DNA of 63,726 bases, filler included, from Diploschistes diacapsis (GCA_023645945.1; 25 parts of 25 records of this genome joined end to end with filler, not necessarily neighbours in it), one strand, 5' to 3'; shown: positions 4,801 through 63,506, counted from the whole stretch's first letter. The notes: generated by a model from the letters alone, not told the origin. Translations and numbers: made by a program.

Positions 4801-7800
4801 GCAATCAGTCGCAGACGTCACATCTTGCACTTGGAGGAGGCTACTTGTATGCCCTTGCTTGGTTTTCAGTCGTGTAACTTCTCGTATGGCTATGCGAAGT
4901 AAAAAAGGAGCTTCTTCCGGTTCCGTTCGTCGAGTGTAGCACCCGTAGTGCGGGTGACTCTATCGTGCTGCATACTACACGTGCAGCAGGTAACTACCCA
5001 CTTTTGGGGACCTTATCAAGTGACACACACCTCTGGCTGGGCTGAGCTTGAAACAAGAGCTTTGTGCCTGTCTCGAGTCATAGACCTGCAAGTATGCTGA
5101 TGTAGTACCTCAAAGTTCGTTATACATGATGTAGGAGCAAAGCAAAAATAAACAATGATTTCGTCATGAGTCTTGCTAATTGTGCATGCTATTGGAAAAA
5201 CCCCATCAGTGTTCCAGGGTAATGAACGTGCGATCTGGAACTTCACCACAGCAACGCGTGCTGCCGCTGCCAGTGAGGTGGACAAGAAACGAAAGGAACC
5301 ACTGAAAGGCAAAAGAATTACGAAAAACCAACAGAGAGCACGGCAACTCGGCATCTCTAGACCTAAGAAACCAGGCGTTGATCGACAATTACCGGGGTAC
5401 GCGAGACATCAATGGTAAGTTGATGATCTGAGCCTTGGTTGATTGGTGAGATGTTGGATTCGTCAGATGGAAAAACACGTGGCCGCTAGGGGCAGGTGGC
5501 GCCCACCCCTTGTCACAACATCACATGTTCTCTTCTACTGTTTTTCGGCCCGGAAACGGTTAGATCCGTCAGTCACACACACACACGGATGGCCAGTCCT
5601 GAAACAAATACTAGCTCCAAACAGATCGACAATCTGAAACAACTCGCTTCAAGCTTGTTAACGTCCCCATCATCATCTTTTGCTTCTGCTTCTGCTTCTG
5701 CTTCTTTGCTTTTGCGTTTGCTTCATAATATTTTACTCTTTGAATATGTGTGTTGCATTCTTCGCCGCCTGCTAGCAACCGACTCCTCTCTGTAGGAGCC
5801 GCTTCTGCAATCCTCACAGAAGTGGTCGTTGGGTAATTTCGGGGTGCTTCGAAGAAGAACAACGTGGGACTCGAACCTACCATGTACACCCTGTTACGAT
5901 TCTCCGAGCGGCTATCGATCATCTCATCCCATCTGTCTCATGGACCTTTCGCATATAGTCTTCCGATCCGACTGATTGGAATTTCAATCTACAGCTGGCA
6001 GATCGTAGCCACGTCCACTGTCTTGCAAAAGCAAAATCCCACGAATTCGGAAGTGCCGGTAGCACGATGATGGCTCGAGGAGGGACCCCGAAGGGCTTTC
6101 GGCCTTGTGTCTTGCCTTTGAAAATGTTCAAGCGGGTAGCACCAAGGCGACAAAATCGAAAAAAAGCAACCAACGGATTGTGTTGACATCGCCCATTCTC
6201 TGCCAGCTTAAGGTTTGCTGATCCGCTGCTTTACCTACGCTTGCAGCTTTGTTGCTTTGCGATCTGCACTCTGTATGGAGCGAAGCTTGTTACCAGCTCG
6301 TGCTAGGCTCCTCCCTACAGCAATTCACACGGGCTGGATCTTGACGTGTGTTACAGCTGTGCAGCAAGGGCGATGTGTGGACAGCTTGGTGTGGAAAACC
6401 AAAATGCAATCAAGTGAGTTATAGCGAGGCACAATCCCGGGGTTGTTCTCTGTGTACCTGAGTTCAAGGAGATGTACGTACACGGCCACCCAGTCACAAA
6501 ATGCACACACATTCTAGCACGTCTAACGGTTCCCACCCTCCCAGCTGCACTGTTCAGAGCTAAAGGTTGTTTCGAGCTCTCACAGATTTCACATCAACCA
6601 TCACTGGTAGAACCCAGGACGCTCCAAACCCCTACGTGGAGAATGTTGGTAGGTGTACGTCCCTTCCTGTAGGAATATGCATCCCATGAACATGAGCCCA
6701 TCCGTCTCCCAGAGGGACTGCTAATGGCTTTTTGGCCTCGCTCCTCGATGTGACCACACCACTTGGTGGAATACGAGGCTAACATCTTCTTTGTCTGTTT
6801 ATTGGACCAATCCACATAGAACCTTGCGCTGGAAATCGGAGAAGTAGTAGGAAATTACCCTAATACTGGCGCTTTCATCTAGAACGGCCTGCAGTTCTTC
6901 TCCCTGCTCCGTCTTGCTTTATTCGCGGCGGCTGTGGCTGAGCTTATCGTTCAATCTAGTCTTTTCCCACCCAAATGAACTTCTGCTTTGCCGCTACTTG
7001 TTCTTTAAGCCTACCCTCCACTGTATTCGCTTCCGGCCATGTCCGACAGCTGGTCAAACCTTGTCTTCAGCTCTCCCACAAGGCTGCCGAGTCCCTTAAT
7101 CATTCGTTTTAGTCCGTCTAGACCTGCGGTGATTGACACGTCAGCATGATGCCCATCTGCGTTTCGTGCATCAACCGTTGAGCCTTGTCTGTTCCTACCT
7201 GGGCCTGGATGCCTGACCAATGAAAGCCTCACTTTTGGTCATCAAGGCTGCCAGGCTGGATGGCTTGGGAATGGGCGAAGGATCAAAATGATCGTGGCTC
7301 TGCCGCACTCCGTTCAACATGCTTTTGGTAGGGGTCGTGTGTGCTTGGTCGCGCGAGCAACTCTGAGTCGACACGCAGCGTCGTTGTAACTGGGGGTCTA
7401 AGTTCAGATGCCAGGATCCTGCACGTTCTATACCCTCTTCAACGCTCTCTTCCTGACCTTACCATCTTCGAGGGGCATTCTCGTAAACCCAGATCGCCGC
7501 GACAAAGGGAAAGTGTGTAGCCTCGAGCAGTAAGATTCGCATGCTGCGAAGCTCCTCACCAGGCACACAGTCGTAGAAGGCGGAAGAGGACCAACGGGAT
7601 AAGGTTCTAGATGCAGGAGCTCTATGTTAGTGCAATCTTCTTACTCGATGAAGCTTTGAATTAATGAAAATTTCCCTCTTTCCTGAAATTGACAAATACC
7701 AGCAAGACTGGACTCATGGTGACCAAGGGACACTAAACATCTGTGTTGATAAGAGGTTCCGGTATGGCCCACGCCTACTGTGACATCCAGTTTAGGACTG

Positions 7801-18513: not shown

Positions 18514-18613
18514 NNNNNNNNNNNNNNNNNNNNNNNNNNNNNNNNNNNNNNNNNNNNTTAATTAATTAANNNNNNNNNNNNNNNNNNNNNNNNNNNNNNN
18601 NNNNNNNNNNNNN
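18514..18613. other. Artificial contig linker (N44-TTAATTAATTAA-N44), first of 24 in the window
   Basis: The same 100-nt spacer, with stops in all six frames, recurs at 19675, 20836, 21997, 40590, 41751 and so on to 62573. Confidence 0.99.
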
Positions 18614-19674
18614 CCTCCGCACCTCCCCCCAATCTCCCCACCAAGCCCTCACACCTTCCTCCCACCGCTCAATCTCCCCCTCCTCATCCTCCAGATCGAA
18701 TCTCACCTCCAACACCTTCCGGTATCTCGCCTCGAGCACCTTCATTCGCGAGGCAAGATAACGAATCTCGGAAGCCGACCGGGAATTTGCCTTGGTCCTG
18801 CGCCGGGATTCAGTACCGTCAGGAGCGAGAGTGCTGAAGGCCACGTCGAGGTTGAACTCACAGATCCCGAACCTGTGCACGAAGAAGCGAGATTTCCGAC
18901 GATGCCTCCGCTGCTTTCTGCAGGGACAGCGACTGGAGGTGCTGGGACGCCGTTACTCTAGCCTCCGAAGGACTCGTAGAACAATCACTCCGAAGTTAAA
19001 TAGGAGACAATGGGGTAGAAGATAGGGGATGGAAGGCAGAAGGTATGGAATAGCCAACAGATACATGGGCAAAAAGATATTCAACAGACGTACCCAGTTT
19101 TCCTCCTGCCGCATCCTCATTTCCGCCACCACCCTCTCTACCCTCTCCGACAAACACAGCACACTCTCCCGCAGGCCACCGAGTGCCTCCTCATTAGCCT
19201 TCTCCTTATTCTCCTCCTCCTCCTCCTCCTCCCTCCTCACCAGCGCAATAGCACCCCCATCTCCCCCTCTCCCGAAAACGGTATCAGAAACAGAATGAGA
19301 AACAGAACCAGAGCCAGCATCCCCTCTCCCCGCCCCAAAGTCCGTCACGGTGCGGCGTATGCGCTTCACACGCGGTGAAACACCCGCGCTCACGTTCGCA
19401 GCTGGCGGTGACCGCAGTAGTGGCAGTAGCCATGGCGGGTGGTGGAGATGGTGCTCTGCAGCAGGTGCGGAATTGGAGTTAGAGAGTGGCGGGAGTGGGA
19501 CGGGGAGGGTTGCTTCGAGAGCGTCGAGGGCGCGATTGCAGGAAATGAAAGCGGAGAGGGAGAGGGTTGAGCTGGCGAGCCGGGTGGTTAGGTGGTGGAT
19601 GCGGGCGAGGAGGCGCGTTTGTGGTTGGCGGTGGGGTTGGGATTCGGAGGAGAGAGTGGAAGGAGGGGTGGAGG
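18614..19674 (-). CDS. Partial hypothetical coiled-coil protein, probably 2 introns, truncated at both contig ends
   Basis: Open frames RLLARIHHLTTRL..ALDALEATL, LSERVERVVAEMRMRQEE, LQKAAEASSEISLLRAQVRDL and SEIRYLASRMKVLEARY, separated by GTACGT..TAG and GTGAGT..CAG introns. Confidence 0.6.
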
Positions 19675-19774
19675 NNNNNNNNNNNNNNNNNNNNNNNNNN
19701 NNNNNNNNNNNNNNNNNNTTAATTAATTAANNNNNNNNNNNNNNNNNNNNNNNNNNNNNNNNNNNNNNNNNNNN

Positions 19775-20525
19775 CGCTCGAATAAATATTTATATTATTA
19801 GAAACGCTCGCGTCGCGTAAAAAACGTCGGTATCGAGTCTTTCAATTTTTTGAAATCGATTTATAAGATTCTCGATATCGTCGACGATCTTTTTAGCGTC
19901 TTTAAAGCTCGTTATAGTTTATTTAAGACGTCTGGAGCTTTTCGAGAGGTAAATTTTTTAAAATACTCGACTTTAAACTTTCGATAAAAGCTTAAAATGC
20001 CTTAAAGTTTCTTTAAGATGATTAAAGCGGTTAAAGAGGTTTTTACGGAGGTTACGCTTTTAAAATAAAAAATAAGAAGTTTAAAGAAATCTCGATATAT
20101 CGTCAGAAGCGTAAACGCATTATTATAATTATAAAAGATATATTTTTAACTTTTATTAAAATTACTAACGCGCGTTAAACGAAGCGAAAAGCACTCTACG
20201 AAATAAATAAATAAAAAAGACAGAAATAAGCTAAAAAAAAAAATTAACAATATTTCAAATTATTAAGATATATAAAAATAAAAAGATAATTCCGAAAGAA
20301 AGGTTAATTATCTTAAAAAGGCTTTCTAACGTTAACGTCGTCGACGCTAACGATTAGACATAATTAAATAAATCTATAAAATTAAATATAACTATTATTC
20401 GATCTATAAGGCTTTAAATTAATTACTTTTAAAGATATTTCATTTTAAATATTTATTATTATAGTTTTGTTATTATATCACGTGCTCGGGTACTAAGGTC
20501 TGATCGGGTACTAGGGTCACGACTC
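19775..20525 (+). mobile_element. RIP-degraded Fot1/pogo-like DNA transposon end with TIR
   Basis: Terminus reads (minus strand) TA-GAGTCGTGACCCTAGTACCCGATCAGACCTTAGTACCCGA, with two direct repeats as in Fot1-type TIRs. The body is very AT-rich and stop-riddled. Confidence 0.5.
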
Positions 20526-20536
20526 TAATTCAAAAC

Positions 20537-20800
20537 TAGGCTGGCCGTCACTGACACTGACAGTGTCAGTGTCCGTGTTTTAGATTTTTTAGCTGCGGTA
20601 TCCGTGTCCGTGGATTCACGGAAGTGCAGTGTCCGTGTCAATATTAATATTTTAAATTTTTTAATTATAGTGTCCGTATTCGTGAATTCACGGAAATATA
20701 ATGTCCGTATTAATATCCATGTTTTAAAAAATTTAGTTACGGTGTCCGTGTCCGTGTATTTATTATAATATAGTGTCCGTGTCCGTATCCGTATTTTAAA
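20537..20800 (-). mobile_element. hAT-type MITE (TAGGCTGGCCGT family), partial
   Basis: TIR TAGGCTGGCCGT followed by TCCGTG arrays. Confidence 0.85.
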
Positions 20801-21016
20801 AAAACTTTTTTAAAAATAAAAGCGTGAGAAATAAGNNNNNNNNNNNNNNNNNNNNNNNNNNNNNNNNNNNNNNNNNNNNTTAATTAATTAANNNNNNNNN
20901 NNNNNNNNNNNNNNNNNNNNNNNNNNNNNNNNNNNTAGCGACGAGGCGCGTATAATAACCGAGTCGAAAGAACGCGTCGTAACCGTAAAAAACGAATCTT
21001 ATCACGTTAGATAAGC

Positions 21017-21633
21017 TAGGCTGGCCGTTTCGTGCCACGGACACTTCCACGGACACTACCGAGAAAATTTTTAAAACACGATACTGCCACGGACACTACC
21101 GCTAAAATTTTAAAACACGGATATTTCTACGGACATTATATTATAGTAAAAATACGGACACGGACATTACTGTTAAAAAATTTAAAACACGGATACTTTT
21201 ACGGATATTATCGTTAAAAATTTTAAAATACGATATTATTACGGATATTATATTATAATAAATTTATCGAAATATTATCGTAAATCTATCGAAACACCGC
21301 GATAAAAAAATAAAAACGTAAAAAATAAACGTAATAATTTTAAAATTATTTAAAAAATAAATATTATTTAAAAATGTTTCGATAAATATACGGATACGGT
21401 AATAAATTTATTAATACGAATATTACAATTAAAAATTTTAAAATACGGATGTTTTTACGGATATTATATTATAATGAAAGCACGAACACGGATACTACGA
21501 TTAAAATTTTTTAAACACGGACACTTCCACGGACACTACACTACAGTAAAAGCACGGACACGGACACTACGGTTAAAAATTTCAAAACACGGATACTGCC
21601 ACGGCCGTGTCAGTGTCCGTGACGGCCAGCCTA
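21017..21633 (+). mobile_element. Complete non-autonomous hAT-type element (617 bp), 12-bp TIR, 8-bp TSD AGATAAGC
   Basis: TAGGCTGGCCGT...ACGGCCAGCCTA, with AGATAAGC at 21009-21016 and 21634-21641. Internal CACGGA tandem units. Confidence 0.93.
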
Positions 21634-22096
21634 AGATAAGCGACGGAGATAAGAGGTTATTAAAATTAAAATAAAGGAAAGAACGGCAGCGATAATAACG
21701 ATAACGGCGGCAAAGGATTAAAAAACGGCGGCGAGAAACGCGCCGATGAATACGACTGCGATAAGATTTATAAAGATATTAGCACAAAAATAGAAAAAAA
21801 AAAAGAAAATAAATAACATAATAAAAAGAATAGACGAAAGAGAAAAAAAAAAATATAAAACGCGTAGAGCTAATTAATAATTAATATAATCGTAAAAAGA
21901 TTATTTAAATATTAATTATTTAAATAATTTAATAAGCGATATATTAAATTCTAAAAAAGAACTCTAAAATATATAAAAAAAAAAGAGTTTTAATAANNNN
22001 NNNNNNNNNNNNNNNNNNNNNNNNNNNNNNNNNNNNNNNNTTAATTAATTAANNNNNNNNNNNNNNNNNNNNNNNNNNNNNNNNNNNNNNNNNNNN

Positions 22097-39120: not shown

Positions 39121-40589
39121 ATGGACGATGATGACTTGGAACGAGCGCTCGAGAAAGGCGCAGGAGCAGGAGAAGAACAGCGCCTACTCCATCGCGACGA
39201 GGACGATGTGAGCAACCCAGAGCTTGCAGCTCGAGATCTAGAGCGCAGGCGCAAACAGCGCCAGAAAGTCTTCTCAGTACTCTACGGAGTGTTGCTGGCT
39301 TTCACTGCCGCTGCGTTCTTAGCCTACAGCATCAGGAGACCGACAACATTCACCTTTCTGGAAAGTTCGAGACTTCCATCAGCTATCGAAGATGACAACA
39401 GTCTGGCCATACCTTTGCATCCTGAGCTACATAAATATCGAGCTCCTCGAACCATCGAGCATGACTGGACAATCACATGGGATGTCAGAGCCCCGGATGG
39501 AGTGGAGAAACAGGTCTATCTCGTCAACGGTAGGCCAGATGCCTCAGCGTCAAGGCTGCACCGAGTGGTACTGACGAGTCCTAGATGAATTTCCAGGTCC
39601 GACAGTCGAAGCCCGCTCTGGAGACAGACTGGTCTTCCGAGTCCGGAACAATCTGACCGACAACGAAGGCTTGTCCATCCACTGGCATGGGCTCTTCATG
39701 CGCGGTGCGAACGACATGGACGGGGCATTGGGCCTCACCCAATCTGCAATAACCCAAGGAGATGCTATGACCTACGAGTTTGATGTTGCGGAGGACCAGT
39801 GCGGTACCTTCTGGTACCACGCCCATTCTCAGCTGCAGAGGGCAGACGGTCTATATGGAGGCCTGGTGGTCCACTGCCCTGACGAACAGGATAACCCGGG
39901 CAAGCGGCCGGCACGCCAGCACGAGAGCGAGCGACTACTGTTGATGGGAGATTGGTATCATCGTCCTGCCGCGGAAACACTAGCGTGGTACCACCACTGG
40001 CGCTCCTTTGGGAACGAGGTAAGCCTCGCACGTCTTCAATCAACTTTAGTCTTCCACTCCAGTGTTCTAATAGAACGTAGCCAGTCCCCGACTCCCTCGT
40101 CATAAACGCCGGCGGCTCTTATAACTGCTCCAAAGCCGTGCCCGCGCGCCCCATCACCTGCACGCCAACCTCCGCCCAAACCCTGCTCTCACTCACTCAA
40201 GCCCCCACCCGCCTGCGCGTCGTCAATGTGGGTTCCATGACCGGCCTCACCCTACGGATGCCAAAGGCCAGCATGTTCCCCTTCGAGCTAGACGGCGGCA
40301 ACCCAATCGAGGGTTCCACGGTGCACTCCGTCGGCATACTCTATCCCGGGGAGAGGGTCGACCTGCTCATCCAGCCTCTGCCGGGCCCCGCAGACGACGC
40401 CACCACGACATCGTCCATGGAGATCATCATGGACCCCGAGAACTTCCGCTACGGCAACCCTGCCCTCACGCCGAACCAGACCTTTCCGATCTCCCACGCC
40501 TCGCACTCTTCATCCACCGCCACCAACCCCCTCGCACCCATCCACTTTCCGCCGATTCCTCCCTCTCTCTCCCCCTCTCTCTCCCCCTC
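39121..40589 (+). CDS. Multicopper oxidase with N-terminal membrane anchor, 3' truncated by contig end
   Basis: APDGVEKQVYLVNG, FPGPTVE, SIHWHG (L1), GTFWYHAH (L2), DGLYG, TRLRVVNVG, PGERVDL. Introns near 39531-39585 and 40019-40080. Confidence 0.9.
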
Positions 40590-40785
40590 NNNNNNNNNNN
40601 NNNNNNNNNNNNNNNNNNNNNNNNNNNNNNNNNTTAATTAATTAANNNNNNNNNNNNNNNNNNNNNNNNNNNNNNNNNNNNNNNNNNNNCCATACGAGGT
40701 AGTCATTATTGAAAAAGATCGAATATAAGATGATAATAATGATTTAAGGTGGCCGGAATCCCCGTGAAACCCGTTAAGTTTAAAT

Positions 40786-41084: not shown

Positions 41085-41551
41085 CAACGTATTAAGATCC
41101 CGCGTTCTTTTAAAGTAGTATAATTTCTATCTTTGAATCAGCCTATCCTAAGGTTTTATAATTCAGATCCTGGGTTTTTAAATCTTTTCGATTTAATCTA
41201 CGTTAAATAACGTAATCGGTACCCGCGTTCGTAATCGTAATAACTGCCGAGAAACGTAATTTTAATAAACGATTAAGCATAATAAAGTAAGTGCTAATTC
41301 GGGCTTATAATCTATTTAACAACGAAATGGATATATTGAAGTTTAAAGGTTTTAATAAGGAGGTTATTTTATTTTATAGATTTTTATCCTCGTGGGATAC
41401 GTTAAGCTTTATTACTTATACTATTCCTTATTCGGTCTAGTTGGAATTCCAGAAGGTTTAGCTGAATTGAACCTCGGAGTTCAGCCGAACTGAACCTCCT
41501 TCTAGAACCCAGTTATACTCCCAGCCATGCCTTCTGCCTGTTTGCTCAACA
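41085..41551 (-). mobile_element. Copia LTR, TGTTGAGCAG family, partial
   Basis: Aligns by eye with 47386-47549, 61519-61940 and 62971-63506. Starts TGTTGA on the minus strand. Confidence 0.8.
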
Positions 41552-45332: not shown

Positions 45333-45851
45333 ATAAAAACACGGACACGGATACTACGACTAAAAATTTTAAAACACGAATACTTCTACGGATACTATAT
45401 TATAATAAAAACACGAACACGAATATTACGACTAAAAATTTTAAAATACGAATACTTTTACGGATGTTATATTATAACAAATTTATAGAAATATTACCGT
45501 AAATTTATAGAAATAACTCAATAAATAAATAAAAACATAAAAAATAAACGTAATAATTTTAAAACTATTAATAAATAAATATTATTTAAAAATATTTCGG
45601 TAAATATACGGATACGATAATAAAAAAATTAACACGAATATTATAATTAAAAAATTTAAAACACGGATATTTCTATGAATATTATATTATAATAAAAACA
45701 CGAACACGAATATTATAATTAAAAATTTTAAAATACGGATACTTTTACGGATATTATATTATAATAAAAGCACGGACACGGACATTACGGCTAAAAATTT
45801 TAAAACACGGATACTGCCACGGCCGTGTCAGTGTCCGTGACGGCCAGCCTA
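45333..45851 (+). mobile_element. hAT-type MITE, heavily RIP-mutated, right end intact
   Basis: Ends GTGACGGCCAGCCTA; CACGGA/TACGAA arrays. Confidence 0.88.
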
Positions 45852-48628: not shown

Positions 48629-48807
48629 ATTTAAACGTAAACGTATCGTACAAGTTTCGTATTAATAGATTTATTATCGTGTCCGTGCATTTACCGAAAT
48701 ATTTTTANNNNNNNNNNNNNNNNNNNNNNNNNNNNNNNNNNNNNNNNNNNNTTAATTAATTAANNNNNNNNNNNNNNNNNNNNNNNNNNNNNNNNNNNNN
48801 NNNNNNN

Positions 48808-49864
48808 CCCCTGGCCCACCTGACAGGGCATACCGACTCCGTGGCCAACCTGATCTTTACCTTACCAAAAGGTGACTTTCTCGTCACGGGTGGTCTAGAC
48901 GGGCAAATCCGGATCTACACCTGCCCTGCGCCCTCTTCCTTCTCCAACCCGAACCCCTCTTCTCCACCGCAATTCACCCTTCTCACCTCAGCAAGCGAAG
49001 TCCCCGAGATATCCTGGTTGACCGCTTGCCCGAACCCCTCTTACCCCAACACCTTTGCCCTCGGCGCCACCGATGGAAGCGTGTGGGTATACGCCATCGA
49101 CGCCTCCGCCCCACCAGACTCCGCCCTGCAGCTCCTTCAAGCATACTACATCCACTCCGTACCCACCACCGCCGGCTCCTGGTCCCCGTCCGGCAGCCTC
49201 ATAGCCTCTGTCGCCGAAGATTCCACCCTGATAGTGTACGACCCCTTCGGCGAGGCAGCCGGCGCAGGGATCACCAACCCCGCTGGTGGATCGGGACAAG
49301 CGCTTGTACAGCTCGGACCCGAAGACCAACGGTTCAACGTCGAAGGCGGGCTGTACTCCCTCGCTTTCTCGCCTTCTGGATCTCTCCTAGCAGCCGGTGG
49401 TGCAGGCGGCATGATCCGCATCATCGGCCTCCCCCTCCTCTCCGGCGCAGCGAACGCCAGCACCGGTGCCCAGAGCGCCACAAAAAGCCAAAAGGGTGCC
49501 GGCGCCCGCAGCAAAGCAGGTGGAAGCAAACAGGCCCACGCTCCCGGCTCATCGGGCGGCCAAGGCCAGGCCGGCCAGATTCTAGCCTCACTACAGGCGC
49601 AGACGGACGGTGTGGAGACGCTCGCGTTCGCGGACCCGGCGAGCGGGCTACAGGTGCTAGTCACGGGGAGCGTGGACGGGAGCATAGCGCTGTTTGACGC
49701 GGGACGAAACTTTGCGGTGAGGAGGGTGGTGAGGGAGGCGCATGGGGGTGAGGCTGTGGTGCAGGTGGCGTTTGATAAGATGCAAACGGGGACGCCGTGG
49801 ATGCTGACGAGCTGTGGGATGGATGGGGTGGTAAGGAGGTGGGATGTTAGAGGGGGTACAGGCA
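48808..49864 (+). CDS. SQT1: WD40-repeat ribosome assembly factor Sqt1/AAMP-like, partial
   Basis: LTGHTDSV, GDFLVTGGLDGQIRIY, EVPEISWL, FALGATDGSVWVY, GSVDGSIALFD, GMDGVVRRWD. Both ends cut by linkers. Confidence 0.8.
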
Positions 49865-49964
49865 NNNNNNNNNNNNNNNNNNNNNNNNNNNNNNNNNNNN
49901 NNNNNNNNTTAATTAATTAANNNNNNNNNNNNNNNNNNNNNNNNNNNNNNNNNNNNNNNNNNNN

Positions 49965-51937: not shown

Positions 51938-52178
51938 TAGGCTGGCCGTCACGGACACGGCCGTGGTAGTGTCCGTATTTTAAAATTTTCAGCCGTAGTG
52001 TCCGTGTCCGTGCTTTTATTATAATATAATGTCCGTAGAAATGTTCGTATTTTAAAATTTTTAATCGTAGTGTCCGTGTCCGTGTTTTTATTATAATATA
52101 GTATCCGTGGAAGTATCCGTGCTACAAAATTTTTAGCCGTAGTGTCCGTGTCCGTGCTTTTATTGTAGTATAGTGTCC
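51938..52178 (-). mobile_element. hAT-type MITE end inserted in the Fot1 transposase
   Basis: TAGGCTGGCCGTCACGGAC start. The uninterrupted transposase sequence is seen at 54800-54840. Confidence 0.88.
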
Positions 52179-61518: not shown

Positions 61519-61940
61519 CTTTTAAATCGGCCTATCCTAAAGTTTTATGATTAAAATCTTAAGCTTTCGGATTTCTTCGATTTAACTTATATTAAATAAC
61601 GTAATCGGTACCCGCGTTCGTGTCCGTATTAGTTATCGGGAGACGTAGTTTTAATAAACGATTAAACGTAATAAAGTAGATATAAATCCGGATTCATAAC
61701 CTATTTAATAACGTAATAAATATATTGAAATCTACAGATCTATTTTTAAAAAAAATTTTATTTTATAAACTTTTATTCTCGTAAGATACGCTAAGTTTTA
61801 TTATTTATATTATTCCTTAATCGGTCTAGTTGAAATTCCAGGAGATTTAGCTGAACTGAACCTCGGAGTTCAGCTGAACTGGACCTCCCTCTGGAACTCA
61901 GTCGAACTCCCAGCCATGCCTTCTGCCTGTCTGCTCAACA
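61519..61940 (-). mobile_element. Copia LTR, TGTTGAGCAG family, inserted into a hAT MITE (61941-62122)
   Basis: CTGCTCAACA abuts MITE internal repeats. The MITE ends ACGGCCAGCCTA at 62122. Confidence 0.82.
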
Positions 61941-62269
61941 AATATTAATATTTTAAAATTTTTAATTGTAGTGTCCGTGTCCGTGCTTTTATTATAATGT
62001 AATATCCGTGTCAATATCCGTGTTTTAAAATTTTAGCTGTAGTGTCCGTGTTAATGTCCGTGTTTTGAAAATTTTTGCTGCAGTGTCCGTGTTAGTGACC
62101 GTGGCACGAAACGGCCAGCCTAAAATAAAGAATTTATAACACCGTTTATTAGTTTTATTATCGTCGTTACCGCCGATAATACCCTATAGCTTTTAACGCA
62201 GGTCTTTATCTTTTTCCCCCCTTCAGCCTTTTCCTTCTTCCCTTCCTTCCCCCCCTCTAGCCTTTTCCT

Positions 62270-62572
62270 TAGGCTGGCCGTCACGGACACGGCCGTGACA
62301 GTGTCCGTGTTTTAAAAATTTTAGCCGTAGTGTCCGTGTCCGTGCTTTTACTGTAATATAATGTTCGTGAGTGTATCCGTATTTTAAAATTTTTAATCGT
62401 AATATCCGTGTCCGTGCTTTTATTATAATATAATATTCGTAAAAATATTCGTGTTTTAAAAATTTTAATTATAATATTCGTATTAATAGATTTATTATCG
62501 TATCCGTATATTTATCGAAATATTTTACATAATATTTATTTTTTAATAATTTAAGAATTATGACGTTTATTT
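62270..62572 (-). mobile_element. hAT-type MITE, partial
   Basis: TAGGCTGGCCGTCACGGAC start. Confidence 0.87.
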
Positions 62573-62672: not shown

Positions 62673-63506
62673 CTTTATATATTATCAATCTATTCGATAA
62701 TAATATTAATTCTCTAAATCTAATAAAACACGTAAAAATCAAATAATCGTTCAAAACACGTCGATATTACTTATTATCATATACGAGATCTTATCAAACA
62801 AAAACGTATTAAAATATCTTATGTCTTTACCGATAAAATGATTATTAATAAGCTTACGAAACCATTAAATTACTCAAAGCACGACGCCTTTATTTAAAAA
62901 ACTCGGCCTAATTTAAAAGATATCTAATTGAACTATATAGATATACCGGACGATTCCGTTTATAAAAAAGTATTGAACAGATAGGTAGAAGGCATGGATA
63001 AAAATTCGATTAAGTTTTAAAAGGAAGTTCAGTTCAGTTGAACTCTAAAGTTCAGTTTAGTTGAACTTTTTAGAATTCCAACTAAACCGATTAAAAAATA
63101 ATGTAAGTAATAGGGCTTAGCGTATCCCACGAGGATAAAAGTCTACTGTCGGAATATAAACATGAACTGCTGCTTGCTAAGTGGTGCGCATCTTTTGGCG
63201 TAGTGGTTTAGTTCAACAGGTTATGAGCCCGGGTAGCGCACTGCGCTACATCCCCACCCGTTTAGTTCAGAGGTCTGAAATCGAGTCCCGCTCACGGCAG
63301 ATTTTGATCTGGCTGGAAAGAACACAGATAAATAGTAAGAACCGCAGAGCCATGTTTACGGGGGTGTGTCGGAATATAAACATGAACTGCTGCTTGCTAA
63401 GAGGTGCGCATCTTTTGGCGTAGTGGTTTAGTTCAACATCTACAAAATAGGATAACCTCCTAAAGTAGATTTCTAGACTTCAATATATCTATTACGTTGT
63501 CAAACA
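62673..63506 (+). mobile_element. 3' end of a RIP-inactivated Ty1/Copia element: RNase H, mutated PPT, 3' LTR from 62971 (host of the TRIM)
   Basis: RSKHVDITYYHIRDL..YVFTDKMIINKLTKPL matches Copia RNase H KHIDxxYHxIR..ADxLTK. AAAAAAG|TATTGAACAG is the mutated PPT|TGTTGAGCAG. Confidence 0.85.
63147..63438 (+). mobile_element. Complete miniature non-autonomous LTR retroelement (TRIM-like), 292 bp, Copia-type signals
   Basis: LTRs 63147-63218 and 63367-63438 (72 bp, TG..CA, 1 mismatch). PBS GGTTATGAGCCC 63219-63230, PPT GGGGGTG 63360-63366, TSD TCTAC 63142-63146 and 63439-63443. Confidence 0.95.

Follow-up and report, generated by a model that had tools for sequence, protein, structure and literature searches.

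The question raised by this locus is how a 292-bp insert that carries the outward features of an LTR retrotransposon, and that codes for nothing, came to lie intact within the heavily mutated remains of a Copia LTR. The sequence comes from Diploschistes diacapsis (GCA_023645945.1) and was analyzed as a 63,726-nt stretch of joined genome parts, hereafter the window; all coordinates are those of the window unless a metagenome locus is named. An earlier note on this DNA had interpreted the insert as a young, complete TRIM with half-tRNA priming that had remained untouched by RIP. The structure of the element, the event that placed it in its host, its likely mode of priming and its possible relatives are described below, along with other explanations for its existence.

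A direct-repeat search of the window detected two copies of a 72-nt sequence, at 63147–63218 and 63367–63438 on the plus strand, that are 99% identical and differ at a single site (T at 63182 versus A at 63402), in agreement with the two LTRs and the one T/A difference described in the earlier note. Both copies start with TG and end with CA (TGTCGGAA and GTTCAACA, respectively), and they enclose an interior of 148 bp (63219–63366). The first bases of the interior are GGTTATGAGCCC, a putative primer site (PBS) that is followed by GG (63219–63232, +), and the last are ACGGGGGTG, a polypurine-type tract (PPT) that directly adjoins the 3' LTR (63358–63366, +), so that the PBS and the G-tract lie where they had been reported. 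Immediately 3' of the PBS is a perfect 7-bp hairpin, GTAGCGC-ACT-GCGCTAC (63233–63249, +), which carries a GCGC-rich second motif. The element is flanked on either side by TCTAC (63142–63146 and 63439–63443, +), a perfect 5-bp target site duplication (TSD) of the kind that had been claimed for it.

The interior had been described as non-coding, and this is the case. The longest ORF with an ATG start is 66 aa, begins at the ATG within the PBS, and shows no Pfam match at E ≤ 1, and the equivalent frame, read by eye in two similarly built elements found among the metagenome matches listed (L007 and L009, see below), stops after 29 and 25 codons, respectively. Four features by which a TRIM is recognized are present: direct repeats with TG..CA ends, a short interior that runs from a PBS to a PPT, an absence of coding capacity, and a TSD with its corresponding empty site. 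The first plant TRIMs had LTRs of 100–250 bp, longer than the 72 bp seen here. No promoter, R region or terminator could be assigned within the 72-bp LTR, and the predicted RNA fold energies of the leader and the interior are no better than those of shuffled sequences (z = −0.66 and −0.04, respectively).

The insertion can be reconstructed from paralogous copies of the host sequence. If the insert and one copy of the TSD are removed, the host aligns without a gap over the join to two minus-strand LTRs (approximately 41313–41551 and 61702–61940), with which it shares 76.6% and 75.3% identity, respectively. In both of these the target is present only once, as ATAGA at 41376–41380 (= TCTAT) and as ATAAA at 61765–61769 (= TTTAT). 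The first of these empty sites was already noted by the earlier reader, and the second is an additional example. The interrupted LTR spans 62969–63505 (+) and is 240 bp long without the insert. The 300 bases upstream of it translate, stops included, as a Copia RNase H tail, with the C-terminus of pol recognizable by tblastn at 62748–62891 (+), and this tail is matched by ORFs of four metagenome loci (L026, L025, L036 and L045; tblastn E-values of 9e-7 to 3e-4). Since the pol tail lies upstream of it, the split LTR represents the 3' end of a Copia on the plus strand. This Copia is dead, with stops in pol and a transition-rich LTR. The two paralogs represent minus-strand 5' LTRs (41301–41551 and 61690–61940, PBS included), and they are followed by mutated copies of the PBS of the miniature element, GATTATAAGCCC at 41301–41312 and GGTTATGAATCC at 61690–61701, which places the host family in the same priming class.

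Several other features of the window were observed in passing. Another repeat family, internally subdivided into units of about 40 bp, is scattered over the AT-rich regions with 74–92% identity (62147–62572, 45542–45851, 21323–21635, 51938–52135 and many more places), and is unrelated to the miniature element. An open frame of 386 aa with WD40 repeats (48760–49920, +; Pfam E = 5e-25) lies in an island of GC 0.62 within an AT-rich block of repeats, and exons of a multicopper oxidase (39575–40641, +; Cu-oxidase_3, E = 3e-33) lie at the border between a GC-rich gene region and an AT-rich block.

The condition of the host LTR is very different from that of its insert. Compared with the two paralogs, the host LTR shows 49 transitions and 8 transversions, and 55 and 5, respectively, and when the majority base of the three copies is taken as ancestral, C>T (23) and G>A (26) changes in the host exceed T>C (8) and A>G (10). 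This excess, together with a depletion of CpA/TpG, is what characterizes RIP-affected sequence, and the earlier claim that the host is loaded with changes of this type is well founded. Under the same three-copy majority ancestor, the mutated cytosines (n = 49) are found in CpT (27), CpA (9), CpC (9) and CpG (4) contexts, so that the CpA preference typical of Neurospora RIP is not seen in the host changes. The decay of the host is probably the result of classic RIP, an attribution that goes no further than probable because the context of the mutated cytosines is mostly CpT and not CpA. The miniature element, on the other hand, has a GC content of 0.48 versus 0.28 and 0.19 in its flanks, a (CpA+TpG)/(ApC+GpT) index of 1.16 versus 0.57–0.58, and LTRs that differ from each other by no transitions and one transversion, with no RIP-type change, and so does lack the marks of RIP, as had been proposed. 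The host was mutated first, and the element inserted later and has not been hit since.

The age of the element can be judged only in relation to this sequence of events. It is young relative to the decay of its host, and to this extent the earlier description of it as young holds; as an age in its own right the term is less secure, since a single transversion over 72 bp gives an LTR divergence of 1.4% that carries a very large error. Three explanations remain for the unmutated state of this one copy: the element is too short for RIP, or it is single-copy and hence invisible to it, or it post-dates the last sexual cycle in which the locus was mutated. Escape from RIP by compactness was proposed in 2020 for the TRIMs and MITEs of Parastagonospora nodorum, according to the available text of that study (bioRxiv 10.1101/2020.11.12.379651), and a size limit to RIP has also been invoked, in the accessible part of another, for the short repeats of Zymoseptoria (PMC4522978).

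The PBS provides an indication of how the element may be replicated. The 12-mer GGTTATGAGCCC is identical to the final 12 nt of oPA1732, an antisense probe for the initiator Met-tRNA of yeast (PMC11230868). As the probe is antisense, beginning in the T arm and reaching the anticodon stem, its final 12 nt pair with the anticodon stem-loop, and the ATG of the 12-mer lies opposite the CAU anticodon. With the yeast tRNA as the molecule compared, this identity supports the earlier proposal of a PBS that pairs with initiator tRNA-Met at its anticodon stem-loop; ARAGORN detected no tRNA of any kind in the window, and among the 120 metagenome loci listed it detected no tRNA-Met. The exact 12-mer occurs only once in the window, in the element itself. 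A PBS of the anticodon type abutting the 5' LTR and a TSD of 5 bp are the features of half-tRNA-primed Ty1/copia elements, and both are found here. Ty5 and Drosophila copia are known to prime from the anticodon loop, and in the available text of a survey of such elements this is the dominant type of priming among fungal TRIMs, in combination with 5-bp TSDs and Copia helpers (PMC10886601).

The sequence that follows the PBS also shows some regularity. When the leaders of the metagenome matches listed were grouped greedily into 63 families, which are not independent of each other, GG was present after the 12-mer in 41, and GCGC occurred no more than 25 nt from the PBS in 19, whereas shuffled sequences gave 5.9 on average and 13 at most. 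The GCGC-type motif of the leader may mark another point at which the primer tRNA is contacted, or it may be a 5' end that resembles that of a tRNA.

Taken together, we favor, with a probability of around 80%, the interpretation that the insert is a complete, non-coding TRIM of 292 bp that relied on the proteins of an autonomous Ty1/copia element for its reverse transcription and integration. In its RNA, the site of 12–14 nt can pair with the anticodon stem-loop of initiator tRNA-Met, as its identity to the yeast probe shows, and the 5' half of the cleaved tRNA would prime the minus strand, while the G-rich tract before the 3' LTR would serve to prime the plus strand. A copia-type integrase then joined the TG..CA ends to the target, with the 5-bp duplication that is evident from the TSD and the empty sites. 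The landing site was the 3' LTR of a Copia already degraded by RIP-like mutation, and the element has stayed clean since its insertion. The proteins presumably came from a Copia with the PBS type of the element, and the helper was probably a relative of the host family, because this family shares its PBS with the element and resembles it in the LTR tips. The cis signals that such a helper needs may lie in these conserved tips and in the leader.

Further copies of the element were searched for in several ways. The window, of which about 2.1 kb is masked by Ns, does not contain a second copy detectable by blastn-short. RIP-mutated copies were also not found in it, as the best matches after collapsing the sequence to purines and pyrimidines (57/72, 56/74 and 55/74) are close to the maxima obtained with shuffled sequences (56–58). 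The masked positions are arranged as pairs of 44-N runs, 12 bases apart, that recur every 1154–1161 bases in the AT-rich regions 18514–22096 and 40590–62672 (48 runs); so regular a pattern suggests that the Ns were introduced on purpose and are not gaps in the assembly, and each long element of the window is partly hidden by them. A scan with a 22-mer of the LTR gave no matches in metagenome, genome and viral contig collections. Thirty sampled words were partly present in three of nine listed sequencing runs (fractions of 0.33, 0.23 and 0.17), none of them an RNA run, values that are unusable for inferring copies, habitat or expression.

A scan of metagenome contigs with a 19-mer spanning the LTR/PBS junction was more productive, and returned at least 120 loci (L001–L120), most of which are ordinary Copia 5' LTR/PBS junctions. 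In a strict test requiring a 40-nt match, a second LTR end was found within 2 kb in two of the 120 matches listed, at 2.3–5.6 kb in 11, and not at all in 107, with only 54 of the 120 having at least 1 kb of downstream sequence in which to look for it. A looser test by local alignment gave four cases within 1.5 kb among the matches listed (L007, L009, L056 and L069). Locus L007 contains an element of 329 bp (reverse complement of 5939–6267) with LTRs of 69 bp, the TSD CAAAA, the PBS GGTTATGAGCCCGG and the PPT GCGGGGGTG, and L009 one of 317 bp with LTRs of 68 and 69 bp, the TSD CTATG and the PPT TAAGGGGAG. Both elements share with that of Diploschistes the PBS followed by GG, and in both the PPT is a G-tract; Pfam searches of the ORFs next to them gave no indication of the taxon. 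The LTRs of the L007 element differ at three sites, all of them G/A; its flanks are AT-rich (GC 0.24–0.31), yet their dinucleotide index of 1.23–1.24 is not RIP-like.

The LTRs of the three miniature elements are similar to each other, as in comparisons that excluded the last 7 nt, which are forced by the search, shuffled sequences reached the observed score in 2 of 2000 cases for Diploschistes and L007, 2 of 2000 for Diploschistes and L009, and 9 of 2000 for L007 and L009. The shared parts consist of the tip TGTYGRAATATA, found in the Diploschistes and L009 elements, and the block AAGTG..GCA.CTTTTGGC that precedes the TTCAACA end. With the PBS and PPT removed, the interiors of the Diploschistes and L009 elements are collinear, albeit weakly (28 of 2000 shuffles score as high), while those of Diploschistes and L007 (458/2000) and of L007 and L009 (965/2000) are not alike. 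These values apply to relatives drawn from a search that forces a 19-nt match, with further similarity over about 20–45 aligned bases, and they come from post hoc tests. Within the 562 kb searched, an nhmmer profile built from six LTRs detected no further member, and a helper with TGTCGG...TTCAACA ends was not found in the window or in the 498 kb of metagenome loci listed. Longer elements with the same junction have longer LTRs. In the 10 elements of 2.3–5.6 kb that have their 5' LTR wholly within the locus, LTR lengths are 115–302 bp; in an eleventh, L036, the locus ends after 148 bp of the LTR, and the LTR of a 1.4-kb element is 99 bp. An LTR of about 70 bp is found in none of these longer elements among the matches listed.

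These comparisons bear upon the simplest competing explanation, that the insert is a one-off internal deletion of a full-length Copia, which was inserted here, or elsewhere and then moved once, and lost almost its whole interior, and hence a single accident without a family. Only a single copy is present in the window, the leader after its PBS (GGGTAGCGCA) resembles those of Copia-type junctions such as the ones in L101, L051 and L067, and some TRIMs do arise by internal deletion according to the available text of Kojima 2024 (PMC10886601). Against a deletion, the 10 longer elements among the matches listed that carry the junction and have their 5' LTR wholly within the locus have LTRs of 115–302 bp and not 72 bp. 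In addition, the independent elements in L009 (317 bp) and L007 (329 bp) have LTRs of 68–69 bp that are related to the one seen here, and the L009 interior is collinear with that of the Diploschistes element. The occurrence of these two elements, alike in size and build and with related LTRs, on metagenome contigs that are unrelated to each other suggests that the miniature form was inherited, and argues for what may be a persisting miniature lineage rather than a one-off deletion; we regard the deletion as unlikely. A further proposal is that the structure is an artefact of chance or assembly, in which a local tandem duplication mimics an LTR element, and only the single copy speaks in its favor. 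It would leave the elements of like build in L007 and L009 unexplained, as well as the coincidence of a near-perfect 72-nt repeat with TG..CA ends, a PBS, a purine tract, an exact 5-bp duplication and two empty sites, for which chance is not a credible source, and it can be considered highly improbable.

A different kind of alternative concerns transcription, and holds that the element is a TRIM of the Helenus/TRIMp3 type, driven by pol III from a tRNA-derived promoter and not by a pol II promoter in the LTR or by read-through. Each LTR contains an exact match to TRGCNNAGTGG, which we take to be the box A consensus, at 63196–63206 and again at 63416–63426 (+); these are two of only three matches in the window, where 0.53 would be expected. 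The interior of the L009 element has a box A at bases 16–26, just past the PBS, and a box B with one mismatch (AGTTCGATCCC) 32 nt later, a pair that is unique in the 562 kb searched, on both strands, and that shuffled sequences produce 0–1 times even if two mismatches are allowed. The interior of the Diploschistes element carries weaker versions at the corresponding offsets, TAGCGCACTGC at bases 16–26 and, one base off the position of its L009 counterpart, a putative decayed box B, AAATCGAGTCC, at bases 60–70 (63278–63288, +), and there is a TTTT run within the conserved LTR block. Against a pol III promoter, Rfam at E ≤ 10 found nothing in the Diploschistes element and only chance-level miRNA and snoRNA matches in L007 and L009, and ARAGORN detected no tRNA in the Diploschistes element with default settings, its relaxed calls being indistinguishable from those for shuffled sequences (62–73 of 100 shuffles give a call). 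Moreover, the LTR lacks a box B, its box A is in a stretch specific to this element that is absent from L007 and L009, and transcription from a promoter located 3' of the PBS would probably begin so far downstream that the RNA would lack R and U5. We consider pol III transcription of this type quite improbable. Membership in Helenus/TRIMp3 was rejected, the LTR having a box A and no box B, and the Rfam and ARAGORN results together with an LTR box A that is confined to this element mean that it is not placed in Helenus.

The boxes in L009 do suggest a more specific extension of the preferred reading, that of a Copia-dependent TRIM. It is possible, although we are doubtful of it, that the three elements belong to an undescribed lineage present in more than one organism, made up of Copia-dependent TRIMs of 292–329 bp whose LTRs of about 70 bp share AAGTG..GCA.CTTTTGGC...TTCAACA, and whose interior carries a tRNA-derived pol III A/B module after the PBS that is intact in L009 and decayed in Diploschistes. 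If true, this would be the internal-tRNA counterpart of Helenus, in which the tRNA-like part sits in the LTR. Among the metagenome loci, L022 is a full-length element of Copia type (LTR starts at 1822 and 6725) with the PBS found in Diploschistes, and its leader (2263–2800) contains three tandem units of about 185 bp. By eye, each unit has a tRNA-like A/B pair, that of the third being decayed; a pattern search matched only the first, and ARAGORN calls no tRNA in any of them. This leader hints that tRNA-like modules may be recurrent in this PBS class.

How does the element compare with known systems? The earlier note held that descriptions of TRIMs come mostly from plants, with a few from animals; this is outdated, as the available text of Kojima 2024 (PMC10886601) reports 113 Helenus TRIM families in rusts, with some in Agaricomycetes, and TRIMs are also on record from RIP-active ascomycetes. 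Helenus elements resemble the Diploschistes element in being small, non-autonomous fungal LTR elements with 5-bp TSDs and inferred Copia helpers, and their LTRs need not match those of the helper (PMC10886601, available text). By their description, however, the LTR of these elements has a tRNA-like part that includes both box A and box B, whereas the LTR described here has box A alone and no detectable tRNA. They also come from Basidiomycota (Pucciniales, and some Agaricomycetes), the word 'Ascomycota' not occurring in PMC10886601, while the present element is from a genome with RIP-like decay.

A further comparison is with the TRIMs of RIP-active ascomycetes. Seven Copia-related TRIMs are reported from Cochliobolus heterostrophus in the available part of PMC4112212, and in Parastagonospora nodorum TRIMs and MITEs are given as the main recent insertions, with 793 copies of RLX_TRIM_Sinope across isolates (10.1101/2020.11.12.379651, available text). 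RLX_TRIM_Sinope and other TRIMs of such fungi are like the Diploschistes element in being shorter than 400 bp, higher in GC than long elements, and recently active, a comparison made by description in which the Diploschistes element stands as one copy without population data. The grass element SMART, according to the accessible text of PMC3281118 and PMC10886601, has a total length of 292 bp, is called the smallest LTR retrotransposon, and has a probable Copia helper; the earlier comparison of the insert to the smallest grass elements is therefore apt, but SMART is a plant family, and the likeness is one of size and probable helper, and not of sequence, PBS type or LTR. Ty5 of yeast and copia of Drosophila share with the Diploschistes element priming by the anticodon stem-loop of initiator tRNA-Met and not by the 3' end of the tRNA, membership of the Copia superfamily and 5-bp TSDs (PMC10886601, available text), and differ in being autonomous, coding elements of 5 kb.

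The element belongs to a known kind of TRIM, and may match one of the named families. That fungi have TRIMs, that these can use half-tRNA priming, and that small size may permit escape from RIP are each already published for other fungi, in the parts of the sources cited above. At 292 bp, the Diploschistes element ties with the smallest LTR retrotransposon on record, and by itself changes no current view. What it does provide is a clean, datable case of retrotransposition into sequence already wrecked by RIP-like mutation, and its insertion after this decay means that some Copia machinery was still working when the visible copies were already dead from RIP. Should its link to the elements of L007 and L009 hold, it would define a widespread miniature lineage, and if the source genome has many unmutated copies, it would supply an independent case for the published idea that elements of less than about 400 bp evade RIP.
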